In this document: positions 62 through 7,676 of the stretch, piece by piece
Position numbering within the stretch: position 1 is the stretch's first letter
How the letters are laid out: every line of letters starts with the position of its first letter
Origin: a virus
Lineage: Duplodnaviria; Heunggongvirae; Uroviricota; Caudoviricetes
Virus record (IMG/VR): IMGVR_UViG_2698536571_000006
DNA: 7,766 bases
Reading direction: 5' to 3' (one strand)
Position numbers and translations under genes: made by a program
The notes under the pieces: model-generated
The model's input: the letters and a program-made list of their open reading frames with translations, nothing else
The model's database searches: none
Told to the model about the DNA's origin: nothing

Positions 62-125
62 TATTAGCTCCTTCTGATGCCATTCTATTTCAGGAAGGAG
101 TGTCCGTTAAACTCAGGCTACCTCA
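1..125 (-). mobile_element. IS3-family insertion sequence, terminal ~125 bp (left end with inverted-repeat terminus and 5' end of orfA); the element continues beyond the window start
   Basis: Read on the minus strand, the segment begins TGAGGTAGCCTGAG... (IS3-family ends typically start 5'-TG), followed by an AAGGAG Shine-Dalgarno (+ strand 68-73) and an ATG (+ strand 59-61) opening an ORF whose first 20 residues, MSRKTQRYSKEFKAEAVRTV, match the conserved N-terminus of IS3-family OrfA proteins. From memory it resembles IS600. The boundary at ~125 is approximate. Confidence 0.65.
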
Positions 126-465
126 GTCTGCTGATTTGAGTCGCTACAGTGGCACGGTGGTTAACCGTCCGACGTTTTTTGCTTTTGCAAAAGGCGCGGG
201 TGTGATGGGGGAAGCGGGACCTGAAGCCATTCTGCCACTGCGTCGCGGTGCTGATGGTAAGCTGGGGGGTGTGGCGGATACTGGTGGTTCAGGCATGGTG
301 ATGTTTGCCCCGCAGTACAACATTGAGATCAATAACGATGGCACGAACGGGCAGATAGGTCCGGCTGCCCTGAAGGTGGTTTATGACCTCGGGAAAAAAG
401 CGGCCGCGGACTTTATGCAACAGCAGGCCCGTGATGGTGGCCGGTTAAGTGGAGCATACCGGTAA
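126..465 (+). pseudogene. H: Tail tape measure protein (lambda H-like), 3' fragment of ~113 codons, 5'-truncated at the IS junction
   Basis: Open frame ending TAA 463-465 whose stop overlaps the ATG of M (TAATG), the arrangement expected for the H-M junction. Product SADLSRYSGTVVNRP...GGSGMVMFAPQYNIEINNDG...GAYR. Upstream, all three + frames contain stops within 1..99, so no full-length H can be present. The 100..465 track ORF starts at a GTG lying inside the IS terminus and is a chimera. Confidence 0.55.
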
Positions 466-794
466 TGGAGACGTTTCACTGGAAAGTGCGCCCGGATATG
501 AATGTGGTATCAGAGCCGAAAGTGGTGACAGTGAAGCTGGGCGATGGTTATGAACAGCGTCGTGCGGCGGGACTGAATAACCAGTTGTCGACTTACAGCG
601 TGAAGATACGTGTTCGTAAAGGTGAACACCCATTTTTAAAAGCCTTTCTGGAACGGCACGGTGGCGTCCGCGCATTTCAGTGGACGCCACCTTATGACTG
701 GAAGCCGATCAGGGTGGTTTGTCGTAAATGGTCGGCAAGCGTGGGGGCGTTGTGGGTAACCATAACGGCAGATTTTGAACAGGTCGTGGCATAG
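465..794 (+). CDS. M: Tail tip assembly protein M (lambda gpM-like), 109 aa
   Basis: Complete ATG-to-TAG ORF of 109 aa (METFHWKVRPDMNVV...), the same length as lambda gpM and strongly reminiscent of it from memory; position between the H remnant and L. Confidence 0.9.
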   Translation: METFHWKVRPDMNVVSEPKVVTVKLGDGYEQRRAAGLNNQLSTYSVKIRVRKGEHPFLKAFLERHGGVRAFQWTPPYDWKPIRVVCRKWSASVGALWVTITADFEQVVA

Positions 795-803
795 GAGGCT
801 CTG

Positions 804-1502
804 ATGCAGGATATTCCACAGGAAACACATCATGAGACGACACGCCTCACTCAGTCAGCCCAGGTGGTGCTCTGGGAAATCGATCTGACAGAGGTCGGTG
901 GTGAACGTTATTTTTTCTGTAATGAGCAGAACGAAAAAGGTGAGCCGGTTACCTGGCAGGGGCGGCAGTATCAGGCATACCCCATTCAGGGGACGGGATT
1001 TGAACTGAACGGCAAGGGCAGTGCTGCCCGTCCGACACTGACGGTTTCTAACCTGCACGGAATGGTCACCGGGATGGCGGAAGACCTGCAGAGTCTGGTC
1101 GGCGGAACGGTGGTCAGGCGTAAGGTTTACGCCCGTTTTCTGGATGCGGTGAACTTCGTCAACGGAAACAGCGACGCCGATCCGGAACAGGAGGTGATCA
1201 GCCGCTGGCGCATCGAGCAGTGCAGCGAACTGAGCGCGGTCAGTGCCTCTTTTGTGCTGGCCACACCAACGGAGACGGATGGCGCGGTTTTCCCGGGGCG
1301 TATCATGCTGGCGAATACCTGTATGTGGACTTACCGTTCTGATGAGTGTGGTTACACGGGCAGGGCAGTGGCTGACGAGTTCGACAAACCAACGACGGAT
1401 ATCCGGAAGGACAAATGCAGCAAGTGTATGCGCGGGTGTGAGTTGCGCAACAATACCGGTAATTTCGGCGGTTTCCTTTCCATCAATAAACTTTCTCAGT
1501 AA
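804..1502 (+). CDS. L: Minor tail protein L (lambda gpL-like), 232 aa, with a C-terminal cysteine cluster
   Basis: ATG at 804 preceded by AGGAGG SD (794-799); 232-aa ORF, the length of lambda gpL; C-terminal cysteines (CMWTYRSDECGYTG ... KCSKCMRGC) consistent with the metal-binding cluster described for gpL; synteny M-L-K. Confidence 0.9.
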   Translation: MQDIPQETHHETTRLTQSAQVVLWEIDLTEVGGERYFFCNEQNEKGEPVTWQGRQYQAYPIQGTGFELNGKGSAARPTLTVSNLHGMVTGMAEDLQSLVGGTVVRRKVYARFLDAVNFVNGNSDADPEQEVISRWRIEQCSELSAVSASFVLATPTETDGAVFPGRIMLANTCMWTYRSDECGYTGRAVADEFDKPTTDIRKDKCSKCMRGCELRNNTGNFGGFLSINKLSQ

Positions 1503-1506
1503 ATCC

Positions 1507-2250
1507 ATGACACAGACAGAATCAGCGATTCTGGCGCACGCCCGGCGATGTGCGCCAGCGGAGTCGTGTGGCTTCGTGGTAAGAACGCCGGAGGGAGACA
1601 GGTATCTTCCCAGCGAGAATATCTCCGGTGAGCCGGAGGAACGGTTCCGGATGGCTCCGGAGGACTGGCTGCGGGCACAAATGCAGGGTGAGATTGTGGC
1701 GCTGGTCCACAGTCATCCCGGTGGTCTGCCCTGGCTGAGTGAGGCTGACCGGCGGCTGCAGGTGCAGAGTGATTTGCCGTGGTGGCTGGTCTGCCGGGGG
1801 GCGATTCACAAGTTCCGCTGTGTGCCGCATCTCACCGGGCGGCGCTTTGAGCACGGGGTGACGGACTGTTACACGCTGTTCCGGGATGCTTATCATCTGG
1901 CAGGGATTGAGATGCCGGATTTTCATCGCGGGGATGACTGGTGGCGTAACGGTCAGAATCTCTATCTTGACAATATGGAGGTGACGGGTTTTTACCGTGT
2001 CGCACTGACAGAGGCACAGCCGGGCGATGTGCTGCTGTGCTGTTTTGGTTCATCGGTGCCGAATCATGCCGCCATTTACTGCGGTGACGGCGGGCTGCTG
2101 CACCATATTCCTGAACAACTGAGCAAACGAGAGAGGTACACCGACAAATGGCAGCGACGCACACACTCCCTCTGGCGTCACCGGGCATGGCGCGCATCTG
2201 CCTTTACGGGGATTTACAACGATTTGGTCGCCGCATCGACCTTCGTGTGA
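1507..2250 (+). CDS. K: Tail tip assembly protein K (lambda gpK-like) with MPN/JAMM and NlpC/P60 domains; start codon uncertain (ATG 1507, or internal ATG 1651 equivalent to the classical lambda annotation)
   Basis: ORF open from just after the L stop; ATG at 1507 gives 247 aa. Contains an exact JAMM motif HSHPGGLPWLSEAD (HxHx7Sx2D) and, further downstream, the Cys (TDCYT) and His (PNHAAIY) of an NlpC/P60-like domain. The internal ATG at 1651 has a GGAGGA SD. The 3' end overlaps I by 103 nt out of frame, as in lambda. Confidence 0.85.
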   Translation: MTQTESAILAHARRCAPAESCGFVVRTPEGDRYLPSENISGEPEERFRMAPEDWLRAQMQGEIVALVHSHPGGLPWLSEADRRLQVQSDLPWWLVCRGAIHKFRCVPHLTGRRFEHGVTDCYTLFRDAYHLAGIEMPDFHRGDDWWRNGQNLYLDNMEVTGFYRVALTEAQPGDVLLCCFGSSVPNHAAIYCGDGGLLHHIPEQLSKRERYTDKWQRRTHSLWRHRAWRASAFTGIYNDLVAASTFV

Positions 2251-2789
2251 AAACGGGGGCTGAAGCCATCCGGGCACTGGCCACACAGCTCCCGGCGTTT
2301 CGTCAGAAACTGAGTGACGGCTGGTATCAGGTGCGCATTGCCGGGCGTGATGCAGGTGAAACCGAATTGTCTGCCCGTCTTAATGAGCCGCTGGCAAATG
2401 GTGCAGTGATCCACATAGTACCGCGTCTGGTGGGAGCTAAAAGTGGCGGTGTGTTTCAGGCGGTGCTGGGGGCGGCTGTTATGGCGGTTGCTATATGGAT
2501 GCCGGGGGTAGGAATTATGGCGAGTAATCTGCTGTTTTCTCTCGGTGCCAGTATGACGCTTGGCGGTGTTGCACAGATGCTGGCACCGAAAGCCAGAACT
2601 CCCCGTACACAGACAACGGATAACGGTAAGCAGAACACGTATTTCTCGTCACTGGATAACATGGTTGCCCAGGGCAATGTTCTGCCCGTTCTGTACGGTG
2701 AAATGCGCGTGGGGTCACGTGTGGTTTCTCAGGAGATCAGCACGGCAGACGAAGGGGATGGTGGTCAGGTTGTGGTGATTGGTCGCTGA
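2148..2789 (+). CDS. I: Tail tip assembly protein I (lambda gpI-like), 213 aa
   Basis: ATG at 2148 with GAGAGG SD upstream; overlaps the K 3' end in a different frame; a hydrophobic Gly/Ala-rich segment mid-protein; position immediately upstream of J. Confidence 0.85.
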   Translation: MAATHTLPLASPGMARICLYGDLQRFGRRIDLRVKTGAEAIRALATQLPAFRQKLSDGWYQVRIAGRDAGETELSARLNEPLANGAVIHIVPRLVGAKSGGVFQAVLGAAVMAVAIWMPGVGIMASNLLFSLGASMTLGGVAQMLAPKARTPRTQTTDNGKQNTYFSSLDNMVAQGNVLPVLYGEMRVGSRVVSQEISTADEGDGGQVVVIGR

Positions 2790-2807
2790 TGCAAAATGTT
2801 TTATGTG

Positions 2808-2830
2808 AAACCGCCTGCGGGCGGTTTTGT
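2808..2830 (+). terminator. GC-rich stem-loop in the I-J intergenic spacer (possible attenuator or RNA structure)
   Basis: AAACCGCC (2808-2815), loop TGCG, GGCGGTTT (2820-2827): an 8-bp perfect stem followed by a T-rich tract (TTTTGTCGTTT). J follows at 2850, so any termination must be partial. Confidence 0.3.
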
Positions 2831-2849
2831 CGTTTATGGAGCGTGAGGA

Positions 2850-5800
2850 ATGGGTAAAGGCAGCAGTAAGGGGCATACCCCGCGCGAAGCGAAGGACAAC
2901 CTGAAATCCACGCAGTTGCTGAGTGTGATTGATGCCATCAGCGAAGGGCCGGTTGACGGTCCGGTGGATGGATTAAAAAGCGTGCTGCTGAACGGTACGC
3001 CGGTCCTGGACAGCGAGGGGAAGACAAACTTTTCCGGTGTTACGGTGGTGTTCCGTGCAGGTGAGCAGGAGCAGACACCGCCGGAGGGTTTTGAATCCTC
3101 CGGCTCCGAGACGGTGCTGGGTACGGAAGTGAAATATGACACGCCGATCACCCGGACCATCACGTCGGCAAACATCGACCGTCTGCGCCTGACCTTCGGT
3201 GTGCAGGCACTGGTGGAAACCACCTCAAAGGGTGACCGGAATCCGTCGGAAGTCCGCCTGCTGGTTCAGATACAGCGTAACGGTGGCTGGGTGACGGAAA
3301 AAGACATCACCATTAAGGGCAAAACCACTTCGCAGTATCTGGCCTCGGTGGTGGTGGGTAACCTGCCGCCGCGCCCGTTTAATATCCGGATGCGCAGGAT
3401 GACACCGGACAGCACCACAGACCAGCTGCAGAACAAAACGCTCTGGTCGTCGTACACCGAAATCATCGATGTGAAACAGTGCTACCCGAACACGGCGCTG
3501 GTCGGCGTGCAGGTGGATTCAGAGCAGTTCGGTAACCAGCAGGTGAGTCGCAATTATCATCTTCGCGGGCGCATTCTGCAGGTGCCGTCGAACTATAACC
3601 CGCAGACGCGGCAATACAGCGGTATCTGGGACGGAACGCTTAAGCCAGCATACAGCAACAACATGGCCTGGTGTCTGTGGGACATGCTCACTCATCCGCG
3701 CTACGGCATGGGGAAACGTCTTGGTGCGGCAGATGTGGACAAATGGGCGCTGTATGTCATCGGCCAGTACTGCGACCAGTCAGTGACGGACGGATTTGGC
3801 GGCACGGAGCCGCGCATCACCTGTAACTCTTACCTGACCACACAGCGTAAGGCGTGGGATGTTCTCAGTGATTTCTGCTCGGCGATGCGCTGTATGCCGG
3901 TATGGAACGGACAGATGCTGACGTTCGTGCAGGACCGACCGTCGGATAAGGTGTGNNNNNNNNNNNNNNNNNNNNNNNNNNNNNNNNNNNNNNNNNNNNN
4001 NNNNNNNNNNNNNNNNNNNNNNNNNNNNNNNNNNNNNNNNNNNNNNNNNNNNNNNNNNNNNNNNNNNNNNNNNNNNNNNNNNNNNNNNNNNNNNNNNNNN
4101 NNNNNNNNNNNNNNNNNNNNNNNNNNNNNNNNNNNNNNNNNNNNNNNNNNNNNNNNNNNNNNNNNNNNNNNNNNNNNNNNNNNNNNNNNNNNNNNNNNNN
4201 NNNNNNNNNNNNNNNNNNNNNNNNNNNNCTGCTGGAAACGCAGACCGTGGACTTCAGCGTGGGCGCAGAAGGGCTTCGCCATGTACCGGGTGATGTCATT
4301 GAAATCTGCGATGATGATTATGCCGGTATCANNNNNNNNNNNNNNNNNNNNNNNNNNNNNNNNNNNNNNNNNNNNNNNNNNNNNNNNNNNNNNNNNNNNN
4401 NNNNNNNNNNNNNNNNNNNNNNNNNNNNNNNNNNNNNNNNNNNNNNNNNNNNNNNNNNNNNNNNNNNNNNNNNNNNNNNNNNNNNNNNNNNNNNNNNNNN
4501 NNNNNNNNNNNNNNNNNNNNNNNNNNNNNNNNNNNNNNNNNNNNNNNNNNNNNNNNNNNNNNNNNNNNNNNNNNNNNNNNNNNNNNNNGCTGCGTGAGTA
4601 TCCGTGAGAACGACGACGGCACGTATGCCATCACCGCCGTGCAGCATGTGCCGGAAAAAGAGGCCATCGTGGATAACGGGGCACACTTTGACGGTGACCG
4701 GCGCGGCACGGTGAATGGTGTCACGCCGCCAGCGGTGCAGCATCTGACCGCCGAAGTCACCGCAGACAGCGGGGAATATCAGGTGCTGGCGCGATGGGAC
4801 ACGCCGAAGGTGGTGAAGGGTGTGAGCTTCCTGCTTCGCCTGACCGTGGCAGCGGACGACGGCAGTGAGCGGCTGGTCAGCACAGCCAGGACGACGGAAA
4901 CCACATACCGCTTCAGGCAGCTGGCGCTGGGGAATTACAGTCTGACAGTCCGGGCGGTAAATGCCCGGGGGCAGCAGGGCGATCCGGCGTCGNNNNNNNN
5001 NNNNNNNNNNNNNNNNNNNNNNNNNNNNNNNNNNNNNNNNNNNNNNNNNNNNNNNNNNNNNNNNNNNNNNNNNNNNNNNNNNNNNNNNNNNNNNNNNNNN
5101 NNNNNNNNNNNNNNNNNNNNNNNNNNNNNNNNNNNNNNNNNNNNNNNNNNNNNNNNNNNNNNNNNNNNNNNNNNNNNNNNNNNNNNNNNNNNNNNNNNNN
5201 NNNNNNNNNNNNNNNNNNNNNNNNNNNNNNNNNNNNNNNNNNCGCAGTGTGAACACCGTTGGCAAATCGGCATTTGTGGAGGCCATCGGTCGGGCGAGCG
5301 ATGATGCAGAAGGTTATCTGAATTTTTATAAAGGGTTGATCAATAAAACGCATCTCGGCAAGGAGTTGTGGACGCAGATTGATAACGGTCAGCTTGCGCC
5401 GGACCTGACTGAAATCAGGACGTCCATTACGAATGTCAGCAATGAAATCACGCAAACCGTCAATAAAAAACTGGAAAATCAGAGTGCTGCAATCCAGCAG
5501 ATACAGAAAGTTCAGGTTGATACAAATAATAACCTGAACAGCATGTGGGCTGTGAAGCTGCAACAGATGAAGGACGGACGCCTTTATATTGCGGGTATCG
5601 GTGCCGGTATTGAGAATACGCCAGCAGGAATGCAGAGTCAGGTGCTGCTGGCGGCAGACAGGATTGCGATGATTAATCCTGCGAATGGCANNNNNNNNNN
5701 NNNNNNNNNNNNNNNNNNNNNNNNNNNNNNNNNNNNNNNNNNNNNNNNNNNNNNNNNNNNNNNNNNNNNNNNNNNNNNNNNNNNNNNNNNNNNNNNNNNN

Positions 5801-6361
5801 NNNNNNNNNNNNNNNNNNNNNNNNNNNNNNNNNNNNNNNNNNNNNNNNNNNNNNNNNNNNNNNNNNNNNNNNNNNNNNNNNNNNNNNNNNNNNNNNNNNN
5901 NNNNNNNNNNNNNNNNNNNNNNNNNNNNNNNNNNNNNNNNNNNNNNNNNNNNNNNNNNNNNNNNNNNGGGCAAACCTTTCCCACGGGACTCCCGGGCACC
6001 GGAGAGGTGGCCATCAGGGACCATTACCGTCAGGGTTTATGACGATCAGCCGTTTGATCGGCAAATTGTTATTCCCGCGGTGGCGTTTCGCGGTGCTAAA
6101 CATGAGCGGAAGAATAACAATATTTATTCGTCATGCCGCCTGATAGTGAAGAAAAACGGTGCTGAAATTTATAACCGAACGACCCTGGATAATACGCTGA
6201 TATATACGGGTGTTATTGATATGCCTGCCGGTCACGGTCACATGACGCTGGAGTTTTCTGTATCGGCATGGCTGGTAAATGGCTGGTATCCCACAGCAAG
6301 TATCAGCGATTTGCTGGTTGTGGTGATGAAGAAAGCCACTGCAGGCATCACGATTAGCTGA
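2850..6361 (+). CDS. J: Tail tip / host-specificity protein J (central tail fibre); lambda-like N-terminal and central parts, divergent C-terminal region; interrupted by four masked blocks, so reading-frame continuity is unverified
   Basis: ATG at 2850 (GGAG SD 2838-2841), N-terminus [34 protein letters not shown]... Readable segments continue the same protein in + frames through to TGA at 6359-6361. The frame in window coordinates changes across the first three masked blocks (codon starts mod 3: 0, then 2, then 1, then 2), so the gene is either frameshifted or the masks are not length-preserving. Confidence 0.7.
3956..4228. other. Masked block (273 N) inside J
   Basis: Run of N in the supplied sequence; content unknown. 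Confidence 1.
4332..4588. other. Masked block (257 N) inside J
   Basis: Run of N in the supplied sequence; content unknown. Confidence 1.
4993..5242. other. Masked block (250 N) inside J
   Basis: Run of N in the supplied sequence; content unknown. Confidence 1.
5691..5967. other. Masked block (277 N) inside the J C-terminal region
   Basis: Run of N in the supplied sequence; content unknown. Confidence 1.
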
Positions 6362-6380
6362 ATTTTATAACCCAGATACG

Positions 6381-6404
6381 GGCACCAGAAATGGTGCCTT
6401 TTTT
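6381..6404 (+). terminator. Putative rho-independent terminator downstream of J
   Basis: GGCACC (6381-6386), loop AGAAAT, GGTGCC (6393-6398), then TTTTTT (6399-6404); begins 20 nt after the J stop. Confidence 0.55.
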
Positions 6405-6428: not shown

Positions 6429-7028
6429 ATGCGTAAAGTTTGTGCAGCCATTTTGTCCGCAGCCATCTGTCTGGCCGTATCCGGTGCGCCTGCATGGGCG
6501 TCTGAACATCAGTCCACGCTGAGCGCCGGGTATCTTCAGACCCATACTGATATGCCAGGCAGCGATGACCTGAAGGGCATTAACGTGAAATACCGTTATG
6601 AGTTTACGGACACGCTGGGGCTGATTACGTCATTCAGTTATGCCAACGCTGAAGATGAGCAAAAAACGCATTACAGCGATACCCGCTGGCATGAGGATTC
6701 CGTGCGTAACCGCTGGTTCAGCGTGATGGCGGGGCCGTCTGTGCGCGTGAATGAATGGTTCAGCGCGTATGCGATGGCGGGCGTGGCTTACAGCCGTGTG
6801 TCGACCTTCTCCGGGGATTATCTCCGCGTAACTGACAACAAGGGGAAAACGCACGATGTGCTGACCGGAAGTGATGGCGGTCGCCACAGCAACACGTCTC
6901 TGGCGTGGGGGGCTGGCGTGCAGTTTAACCCGACCGAATCCGTGGCCATTGACCTTGCTTATGAAGGTTCCGGCAGTGGTGACTGGCGCACTGACGGTTT
7001 CATCGTGGGTGTCGGTTATAAGTTCTGA
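6429..7028 (+). CDS. lom: Lom-like outer-membrane beta-barrel protein (Ail/Lom/OmpX/PagC family), 199 aa with signal peptide
   Basis: ATG at 6429 with GAGAGG SD (6418-6423). N-terminal signal peptide MRKVCAAILSAAICLAVSGAPAWA with an AWA cleavage motif; C-terminus AYEGSGSGDWRTDGFIVGVGYKF ending in Phe, which from memory matches the lambda Lom C-terminus; located between J and stf as in lambda. Confidence 0.85.
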   Translation: MRKVCAAILSAAICLAVSGAPAWASEHQSTLSAGYLQTHTDMPGSDDLKGINVKYRYEFTDTLGLITSFSYANAEDEQKTHYSDTRWHEDSVRNRWFSVMAGPSVRVNEWFSAYAMAGVAYSRVSTFSGDYLRVTDNKGKTHDVLTGSDGGRHSNTSLAWGAGVQFNPTESVAIDLAYEGSGSGDWRTDGFIVGVGYKF

Positions 7029-7055: not shown

Positions 7056-7080
7056 GCCCGCTGGTTCAGGCGGGCTTTTT
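7056..7080 (+). terminator. Putative rho-independent terminator downstream of lom
   Basis: GCCCGC (7056-7061), 8-nt loop, GCGGGC (7070-7075), then TTTTT (7076-7080); begins 28 nt after the lom stop. Confidence 0.5.
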
Positions 7081-7091
7081 GTGGGGTGAAT

Positions 7092-7676
7092 ATGGCAGTA
7101 AAGATTTCAGGTGTACTGAAAGATGGGGCGGGTAAANNNNNNNNNNNNNNNNNNNNNNNNNNNNNNNNNNNNNNNNNNNNNNNNNNNNNNNNNNNNNNNN
7201 NNNNNNNNNNNNNNNNNNNNNNNNNNNNNNNNNNNNNNNNNNNNNNNNNNNNNNNNNNNNNNNNNNNNNNNNNNNNNNNNNNNNNNNNNNNNNNNNNNNN
7301 NNNNNNNNNNNNNNNNNNNNNNNNNNNNNNNNNNNNNNNNNNNNNNNNNNNNNNNNNNNNNNNNNNNNNNNNNNNNNNNNNNNNNNCGGGTAAACCTGTC
7401 GTAAATTGTGCGATTGAACTGCGGGCCAGAAGAACCAGTCCGACCGTTGTGGCACACGTTGTTGCCACTTGCGTGACGGACAATAACGGTGCTTATGTGA
7501 TTGAGGCTGAGCCGGGGTATTACGAGGTTGCGCTTCACTGTAACGGCTGGCAGCCAACCCGTGTCGGGGATATTGATGTGGCACCGACTGATGCACCGGG
7601 GACACTGAACGCGTTTCTGAATGCACCAAAGGATGGTGATTTACGTCCGGAGGTGATGAAGTGTCAGCGCCAGTGA
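7092..7676 (+). CDS. stf: Side tail fibre protein (lambda Stf-like), N-terminal domain only (~195 codons), interrupted by a masked block and ending prematurely relative to full-length Stf; possibly a pseudogene
   Basis: ATG at 7092 (the track ORF start at 7050 lies inside the lom terminator hairpin); N-terminus MAVKISGVLKDGAGK resembles the lambda Stf N-terminus. After the masked block the frame continues GKPVVNCAIELRARRTSPTVV...PGTLNAFLNAPKDGDLRPEV, then stops at TGA 7674-7676. Confidence 0.55.
   Translation: MAVKISGVLKDGAGKXXXXXXXXXXXXXXXXXXXXXXXXXXXXXXXXXXXXXXXXXXXXXXXXXXXXXXXXXXXXXXXXXXXXXXXXXXXXXXXXXXXXGKPVVNCAIELRARRTSPTVVAHVVATCVTDNNGAYVIEAEPGYYEVALHCNGWQPTRVGDIDVAPTDAPGTLNAFLNAPKDGDLRPEVMKCQRQ
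7137..7386. other. Masked block (250 N) inside stf, flanked by the 8-bp direct repeat CGGGTAAA
   Basis: Run of N; CGGGTAAA occurs at 7129-7136 and again at 7387-7394. Confidence 1.

Follow-up and report, generated by a model that had tools for sequence, protein, structure and literature searches.

The tail-tip protein gpJ of phage lambda (P03749; PDB 8IYK, 8XCK, 8XCJ) provides the reference for lambda-type host-specificity genes. The solved structure of the lambda tail tip (PMC11101478) gives the domain scheme and the name of the alpha-helical shaft (AHS); along the fibre, two fibronectin type III domains (FNIII-1 and FNIII-2), the AHS and a beta-prism straight fibre lead to an Ig-like, LamB-binding receptor-binding domain (RBD). 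Here we describe the J gene in a 7,766-nt stretch of the IMG/VR virus record IMGVR_UViG_2698536571_000006, hereafter called the window. A preliminary description made from the letters of the window had proposed that the last third of this J is a divergent, AT-richer region with a receptor specificity other than that of lambda. As a whole, the gene is best explained as a lambda-like prophage J with a modular C-terminal fibre in which shaft and RBD have been swapped, a reading we consider likely.

Natural variation at the end of gpJ has been exploited by Brödel et al. (Nature 2024, PMC11338833), who fused C-termini of natural prophage gpJ proteins to lambda gpJ at residue 964 and screened them in recipient cells deleted for lamB. 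The chimeras A8 and 1A2 use OmpC, and were tested in lamB/ompC double deletants with 23 plasmid ompC alleles (PMC11338833). Both RBDs are functional when grafted on the own short shaft of lambda (PMC11338833). gpJ-1A2 delivers DNA through OmpC in lamB-deleted cells (PMC11338833; bioRxiv 10.1101/2025.02.28.640725), efficiently with the EDL933 ompC allele, but not with the K-12 allele, as the original study found and the preprint repeated. The range of OmpC alleles accepted by A8 is broader than that of 1A2. The A8 fibre is available as PDB 9WCA and, bound to OmpC of EDL933, as PDB 9WCB, and a literature search found no paper describing these two entries.

By blastn, the window matches lambda at 86-95% identity up to position 5372, with no match to lambda in 5373-5690 or 5968-6361. 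The N-terminal and central segments of J are lambda-like, as the preliminary description had stated, with 90-95% DNA identity up to about 5300-5345 and ~97% protein identity over the hub and FNIII parts. In order to draw an identity profile through the runs of N that mask parts of J, the masks were filled with the corresponding locus (L002) of E. coli FDAARGOS_943, which is 99.4% identical and the closest match among complete E. coli genomes, and the filled sequence was aligned with lambda and with VT1-Sakai, an Stx1 prophage. The resulting segments, mapped onto the lambda tail-tip scheme, are listed in Table 1. Every identity step between them (90 to 61 to 86 to 55%) is significant, with Fisher p between 1.6e-16 and 3.7e-9. 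In the masked stretch 5691-5967, the proxy and VT1-Sakai run at 82-88% identity to lambda, and then at 45-52%. Thus the divergent C-terminal third is real, but it consists of two blocks rather than one, because the middle of the fibre is a lambda-like island. The short conserved motifs MWAVK, DRQIV and VDMPAG noticed beforehand were all found in the alignment with lambda J.

Pfam assignments on the translated 5243-5689 are consistent with this map. The end of Ig_J_second covers residues 1-29, Phage_Tail_Tip begins at residue 83, and no Pfam model covers residues 30-82 between PF24489 and PF09327, that is, the AHS module at 5330-5488. A single-sequence AlphaFold2 (AF2) model of the same piece is helical with low confidence (predicted local distance difference test, pLDDT, of 57), with too much helix even in parts that Pfam assigns to beta domains. 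It was too weak to serve as evidence on the shaft and was discarded.

The left junction holds a third small variable patch. DNA identity to lambda falls to ~77-78% in 5296-5355, where the window is ~78% identical to VT1-Sakai and to lambda alike, although the sequence on either side of it agrees well with one or the other of them. In this patch VT1-Sakai reads LDFFKGEIGKTHLAQEL and lambda reads LDFFKGKITESHLGKEL.

Base composition changes along with the blocks. With N excluded, mean GC upstream of 5300 is 56.9% over 377 N-free windows of 300 nt (standard deviation, sd, 3.0; minimum 51.7%), and GC in the upstream part of J is ~57-66%, including 58.3% in 4621-4680 where about 58% had been noted. 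GC is 43.7% in 5301-5600 and 46.7% in 6062-6361, under all 377 upstream windows and 4.4 and 3.4 sd lower, respectively. The sharp drop described at about 5300 is therefore genuine, though the figure of about 37% given for 5301-5360 was measured as 35%; the region 6050-6360 is AT-rich as described, with a GC of 47.3%. GC at third codon positions (GC3) falls from 0.72-0.76 upstream to 0.55 in 5310-5690 and 0.53 in 5968-6358. In the composition check that had been proposed, both GC and GC3 thus step down where the divergent blocks begin, and because GC3 drops, the shift is not solely an amino-acid effect. In lambda J the corresponding part declines only mildly, from 0.58 to 0.54.

Recombination of exchangeable modules has very probably built the C-terminal central tail fibre of this J. 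The hub and FNIII parts resemble those of lambda, and just past ...DDAEGYL the gene switches to a longer shaft allele, of the type found in phage 21 and in many Stx and cdt phages. Within the beta-prism fibre it is lambda-like again, and a second switch leads to an Ig-like RBD of the VT1-Sakai/Sp15 type. Module replacement is supported because the identity steps are sharp, GC3 shifts and the lengths differ. The end of the second FNIII domain and the fibre island are the conserved junction regions. Reassortment among other phages also supports the horizontal replacement of a receptor-recognition module that had been suggested for the window. Phage 21, Stx2 phage 1717, cdtI and mEp460_4F5 match 5243-5690 at ~90% DNA identity, yet their RBDs are only 56-59% protein-identical to that of the window. 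With the same shaft allele joined to different RBDs, shaft and RBD alleles travel separately.

If the divergence had instead arisen in place, through fast diversifying evolution of the receptor-contacting end, no horizontal replacement would be required. Arms-race selection acts on receptor-binding ends, and the hypervariable loop of the RBD does contain a run of non-synonymous changes. However, a DNA divergence of 40-45% from lambda, an 81-nt length difference, sharp edges, a conserved island between the blocks and GC3 shifts that go with the blocks are hardly what such evolution would leave, and neither is a shaft allele that occurs at ~90% DNA identity with other RBD types in other phages. 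Furthermore, 21 synonymous against 11 non-synonymous codon differences separate the RBD from that of VT1-Sakai, arguing for old alleles rather than recent adaptive bursts. We regard the in-place origin as very improbable.

The RBD of the window almost certainly shares fold and role with the lambda RBD. PF12421 (Ig_GpJ_C) matches the translated 5969-6358 with an E-value of 8.9e-38 and 129.9 bits, compared with a cut-off of 26.2. An AF2 model of the 130 C-terminal residues, made with 12 homologues, has eight strands at a pLDDT of 88. In Foldseek this model is superposed on the A8 gpJ RBD (9WCA) with a template modeling (TM) score of 0.90, a root-mean-square deviation (rmsd) of 1.9 Å and 56% identity, and on the lambda RBD (8XCK) with a TM score of 0.90, an rmsd of 2.0 Å and 40% identity. 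Comparison with the lambda structure, which had been recommended, therefore gives the same fold with a different allele in sequence. The top sequence match in the PDB is 9wca 'A8 gpJ 713' (1.7e-128), ahead of lambda.

The sequence allele is far from that of lambda and close to that of VT1-Sakai. Pairwise RBD protein identity to the window is 92% for VT1-Sakai (Sp15), 63% for phage 21, 61% for A8 and 39% for lambda, and a tblastn scan gives 39% for the 434-type RBD. Compared with lambda J residues about 1000-1132, the 39% identity and the lack of any blastn match place the window outside the LamB-binding lambda allele, in agreement with the earlier statement that its C-terminal part is unlike lambda J. 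With VT1-Sakai, 119 of the 130 residues are the same, DNA identity is 91.9% and the C-terminal end is the same, so the two are near-identical at a threshold of at least 90%. The 11 substitutions are accompanied by synonymous differences at 21 codons scattered across the domain, and these numbers together mark old alleles, not recent mutants.

Five of the 11 substitutions form one consecutive run in the loop that connects strands 3 and 4. No other element of the family varies as much in sequence and length, and DNA identity to VT1-Sakai is 75% there (6076-6135) vs 88-98% around. With RKNNN in place of KEHTD, the window does not have the loop of the 1A2-like type. The RKNNN loop allele also occurs in sequences of Shigella flexneri and S. 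dysenteriae. An imperfect inverted repeat (6065-6091 and 6095-6121; 27-nt arms, 70% complementary, 3-nt spacing) has its right arm across the loop codons and is probably due to chance. A repeat scan of the window returned just this 70%-complementary inverted repeat and one 16-nt family at chance level. No sign of a diversity-generating retroelement or an opposite-strand gene was seen in the window, whose minus-strand open reading frames (ORFs) run through runs of N.

The window can be set beside four described proteins. First, lambda gpJ occupies the same gene position, has all six Pfam domains and shares the layout of shaft, beta-prism fibre and Ig-like RBD; the shaft of the window is 27 residues longer at ~61% DNA identity, its RBD has no detectable DNA similarity to that of lambda, and its likely receptor is OmpC, not LamB. 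Second, the 1A2 chimera carries an RBD that matches VT1-Sakai (Sp15) and the PPompW prophage J. VT1-Sakai also has the same long shaft allele, while the loop (RKNNN vs KEHTD) and the left junction described above set the window apart. Third, A8 shares the fold and is also a member of the ...VVVMKK.TAGI.IS group, but compared with the window it has a longer hypervariable loop (ENFNSNNQQSYW) and a shorter N-terminal loop. Fourth, phage 21 J shares the long shaft allele and the fibre island, but has an A8-like RBD and LamB as its native receptor.

VT1-Sakai J (L003 1641-5113) is the closest match in the phage collection, and its annotation shows a gene that a mutation has broken into two parts. 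Possibly, then, the 1A2-matching RBD of VT1-Sakai sits in a defective gene in that strain.

OmpC rather than LamB is the likely receptor of the window RBD, in our moderately confident judgement from sequence comparison. It is the best-supported candidate because the RBD is 92% identical to that of VT1-Sakai, which itself matches the OmpC-dependent 1A2; the stitched 1A2 RBD is the same as the VT1-Sakai J RBD at every legible position. The non-lambda specificity proposed in the preliminary description is likely on these grounds. By analogy with lambda, a trimeric RBD at the tail tip would put its distal loops into a trimer of an outer-membrane porin, here most likely OmpC rather than LamB. Porin binding would splay the RBDs and twist the fibre, the shaft would flip, and the tail tube would open for DNA ejection. 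Lambda residue 964, the fusion point of the chimeras, falls inside the conserved fibre island of the window.

Several points weigh against this account of gene and receptor. The supplementary 1A2 DNA was scanned, recoded and full of indels, so that tblastn alignments were broken and three frames were stitched by eye; the match of 1A2 to VT1-Sakai rests on these noisy frames. That the longer shaft would be helical rests on homology to lambda and the weak single-sequence model. About 30% of J is masked, and its intactness is taken from relatives. The hypervariable loop contains five consecutive substitutions out of the 11 that separate the RBD from that of VT1-Sakai. Finally, phage 21 natively uses LamB and gains OmpC use by one mutation, and its RBD is 80% identical to that of the OmpC-using A8. 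As the phage 21 RBD is 48% identical to that of lambda and yet serves for LamB, an RBD unlike that of lambda does not by itself imply a receptor other than LamB. Because of the loop substitutions and the labile receptor choice in the family, our confidence in OmpC was held at the moderate level given above.

The same fold and mechanism could thus serve another receptor, be it LamB, which phage 21 uses, OmpF or a further trimeric porin. The native LamB use of phage 21, with an RBD 63% identical to that of the window, and the single mutations that switch or extend its receptor use speak for this, as do five consecutive substitutions in the most variable loop. We nonetheless consider another receptor unlikely, given the overall identity to VT1-Sakai, itself matching OmpC-dependent 1A2 where legible, and given that both tested natural members of the RBD group of the window, chosen in lamB-deleted cells, use OmpC. 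Moreover, 1A2 and A8 already differ in the OmpC alleles that they accept, and loop variation therefore fits allele tuning and not a change of receptor. With OmpC as the preferred receptor, the RKNNN loop probably tunes which OmpC alleles are recognised. A stronger version, that this rare loop retargets the RBD to distinct OmpC alleles such as those of the Shigella type, or to a different porin, is only a tentative suggestion. A 2026 receptor-prediction preprint, which deals with Drexlerviridae GpJ, contains nothing about the RBD type of the window.

The window type was counted in 5,426 complete E. coli genomes, with at least 80% DNA identity defining a window-type RBD. Such an RBD occurs in 3,377 of them, usually in several prophages per genome, and the window-type shaft occurs in 3,633. 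The own RBD of lambda was found in 98 genomes, some of them laboratory K-12 strains, at 99% identity or more in all cases. With 3,377 genomes against 98, the lambda allele is the unusual one, and the earlier framing that took lambda as the norm is inverted. The J type of the window is the ordinary and most common form in E. coli and Shigella prophages. The exact RBD allele with the RKNNN loop is rare: no more than 8 records among the complete E. coli genomes match it at 99% identity or above.

Five runs of N interrupt the window (3956-4228, 4332-4588, 4993-5242 and 5691-5967, all in J, and 7137-7386), and those in J measure 273, 257, 250 and 277 N compared with 259, 246, 249 and 271 nt in the relative L004. 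Since the masks are not true to length, J appears to jump between frames (0, 2, 1, 2). With the mask lengths of L004, J would be 3480 nt long, exactly 1159 codons plus the stop. The FDAARGOS_943 locus encodes an intact 1159-aa gpJ followed by an Ail/Lom protein, and relatives at 98-99% identity likewise have an intact J of 1159 aa. Six Pfam domains of the proxy J (FNIII-A, Phage-tail_3, Ig_J, Ig_J_second, Phage_Tail_Tip, Ig_GpJ_C) are above cut-offs at the same positions as in lambda J, and the unmasked pieces of the window itself match PF24489, PF09327 and PF12421.

Fragments identical to the window came from Shigella dysenteriae and S. sonnei in a protein search; being short or frameshifted J fragments, they were used for alignment and not for full-length comparison. 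A scan with one genome per species gave an exact 83-nt match over the loop in S. flexneri SFBU1023 and E. coli ECMA0423, whose loci are 96.6-100% identical to the window by segment, with one locus at just 88% over most of 124-3947, so that neither is its source. Together these relatives identify the window as part of an E. coli or Shigella prophage. In E. coli FDAARGOS_943 a frameshifted gene for an ipaH-type E3 ligase effector of a type III secretion system lies just past the tail fibre genes (L002 9663-11308), which suggests a prophage cargo region of the Shigella or enteroinvasive E. coli type.

J might also be a decaying remnant in a defective prophage, its divergent C-terminus having no current function, an idea compatible with the other readings. 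Four masked blocks conceal about 30% of the gene, the VT1-Sakai homologue is itself split by mutation, frameshifted J fragments are numerous in databases, and degraded prophages abound in Shigella-type genomes, an ipaH pseudogene adjoining the proxy locus itself. Against it, every unmasked piece is open in a consistent J frame, relatives have intact genes, the total with true mask lengths comes to exactly 3480 nt, and the adjoining M, L, I and lom are intact. Decay of J is thus improbable.

The gene order supports the identity of J. As the distal tail module of a lambda-like prophage, the window is co-linear with lambda 12000-21500 by blastn, and its order H′-M-L-K-I-J-lom-stf′ is that of lambda, with J in the expected position (Table 1).

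Table 1 Features of the window, with identity segments of J relative to lambda
Feature	Position	Strand	Evidence or remark
End of H	5′ end of window		ORF map
M	465-794		ORF map
L	804-1502		ORF map
K	between L and I		ORF map
I	2148-2789		ORF map; Lambda_tail_I profile match
Tail-tip (host specificity) gene J	2850..6361	+	ORF pieces, synteny, relatives; four N-masks inside
Segment: end of second FNIII/Ig domain	up to about 5345		90% DNA identity to lambda
Segment: first divergent block, shaft and top of straight fibre	about 5346-5715		61%; 81-84 gap columns; 27 extra codons
Segment: lambda-like island, middle of fibre	about 5716-5895		86%; wholly inside mask
Segment: second divergent block, bottom of fibre and RBD	about 5896-6361 (stop)		55%
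End of second Ig/FNIII domain and left recombination junction	5243..5329	+	PF24489, residues 1-29; lambda-like, 93% DNA identity in 5243-5295
AHS module	5330..5488	+	Divergent, AT-rich, 27 codons longer; 48-62% DNA identity to lambda
Top of central straight fibre, start of PF09327	5489..5690	+	Residues 83-149, E 1.6e-17; 62-68% DNA identity to lambda
Masked stretch	5691..5967	+	In relatives, conserved fibre island (PMFV..), then second divergent block from about 5896
RBD, Ig-like PF12421, VT1-Sakai/Sp15 (1A2-like) type	5968..6361	+	Stop codon included
Hypervariable loop, codons 47-51	6107..6121	+	RKNNN here, KEHTD in VT1-Sakai/1A2; five consecutive non-synonymous differences
Terminator-like hairpin and T-run	6380..6399	+	Directly 3′ of J
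lom	6429-7028		Ail_Lom/PF06316 match, E 4e-129; intact outer-membrane beta-barrel gene
Terminator-like hairpin and T-run	7056-7075		Directly 3′ of lom
Side tail fibre gene (stf′), start	after lom		ORF map

The lom gene resembles lambda lom in DNA in short patches only, with 84% identity over 6570-6625 and similarity from 6901. The two terminator-like hairpins may bracket lom as a separate, moron-like unit. In phage 21, which has no lom there, a terminator is annotated at the equivalent place immediately 3′ of J. An Rfam scan of the window gave no match. ORF lists that span the runs of N are misleading.

Modular mosaicism of lambdoid J genes is well known, and this RBD class is already characterised both experimentally and structurally. 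Only the distinct hypervariable-loop variant RKNNN is new, and mildly so; it is a further natural variant that could be screened for OmpC-allele specificity, and opens no new question. The window displays two recombination joints in J clearly, one after the second FNIII domain and one inside the straight fibre, the latter coinciding with the fusion point that had been picked on empirical grounds for engineering. If RKNNN retargeting were true, it would be a natural single-loop switch between porin alleles, usable for engineering lambda-based delivery particles. The tail tip belongs to a common, probably OmpC-directed class that is already in use for engineered lambda-derived delivery vectors, and in annotation the host range of the prophage should not be presumed to follow LamB.

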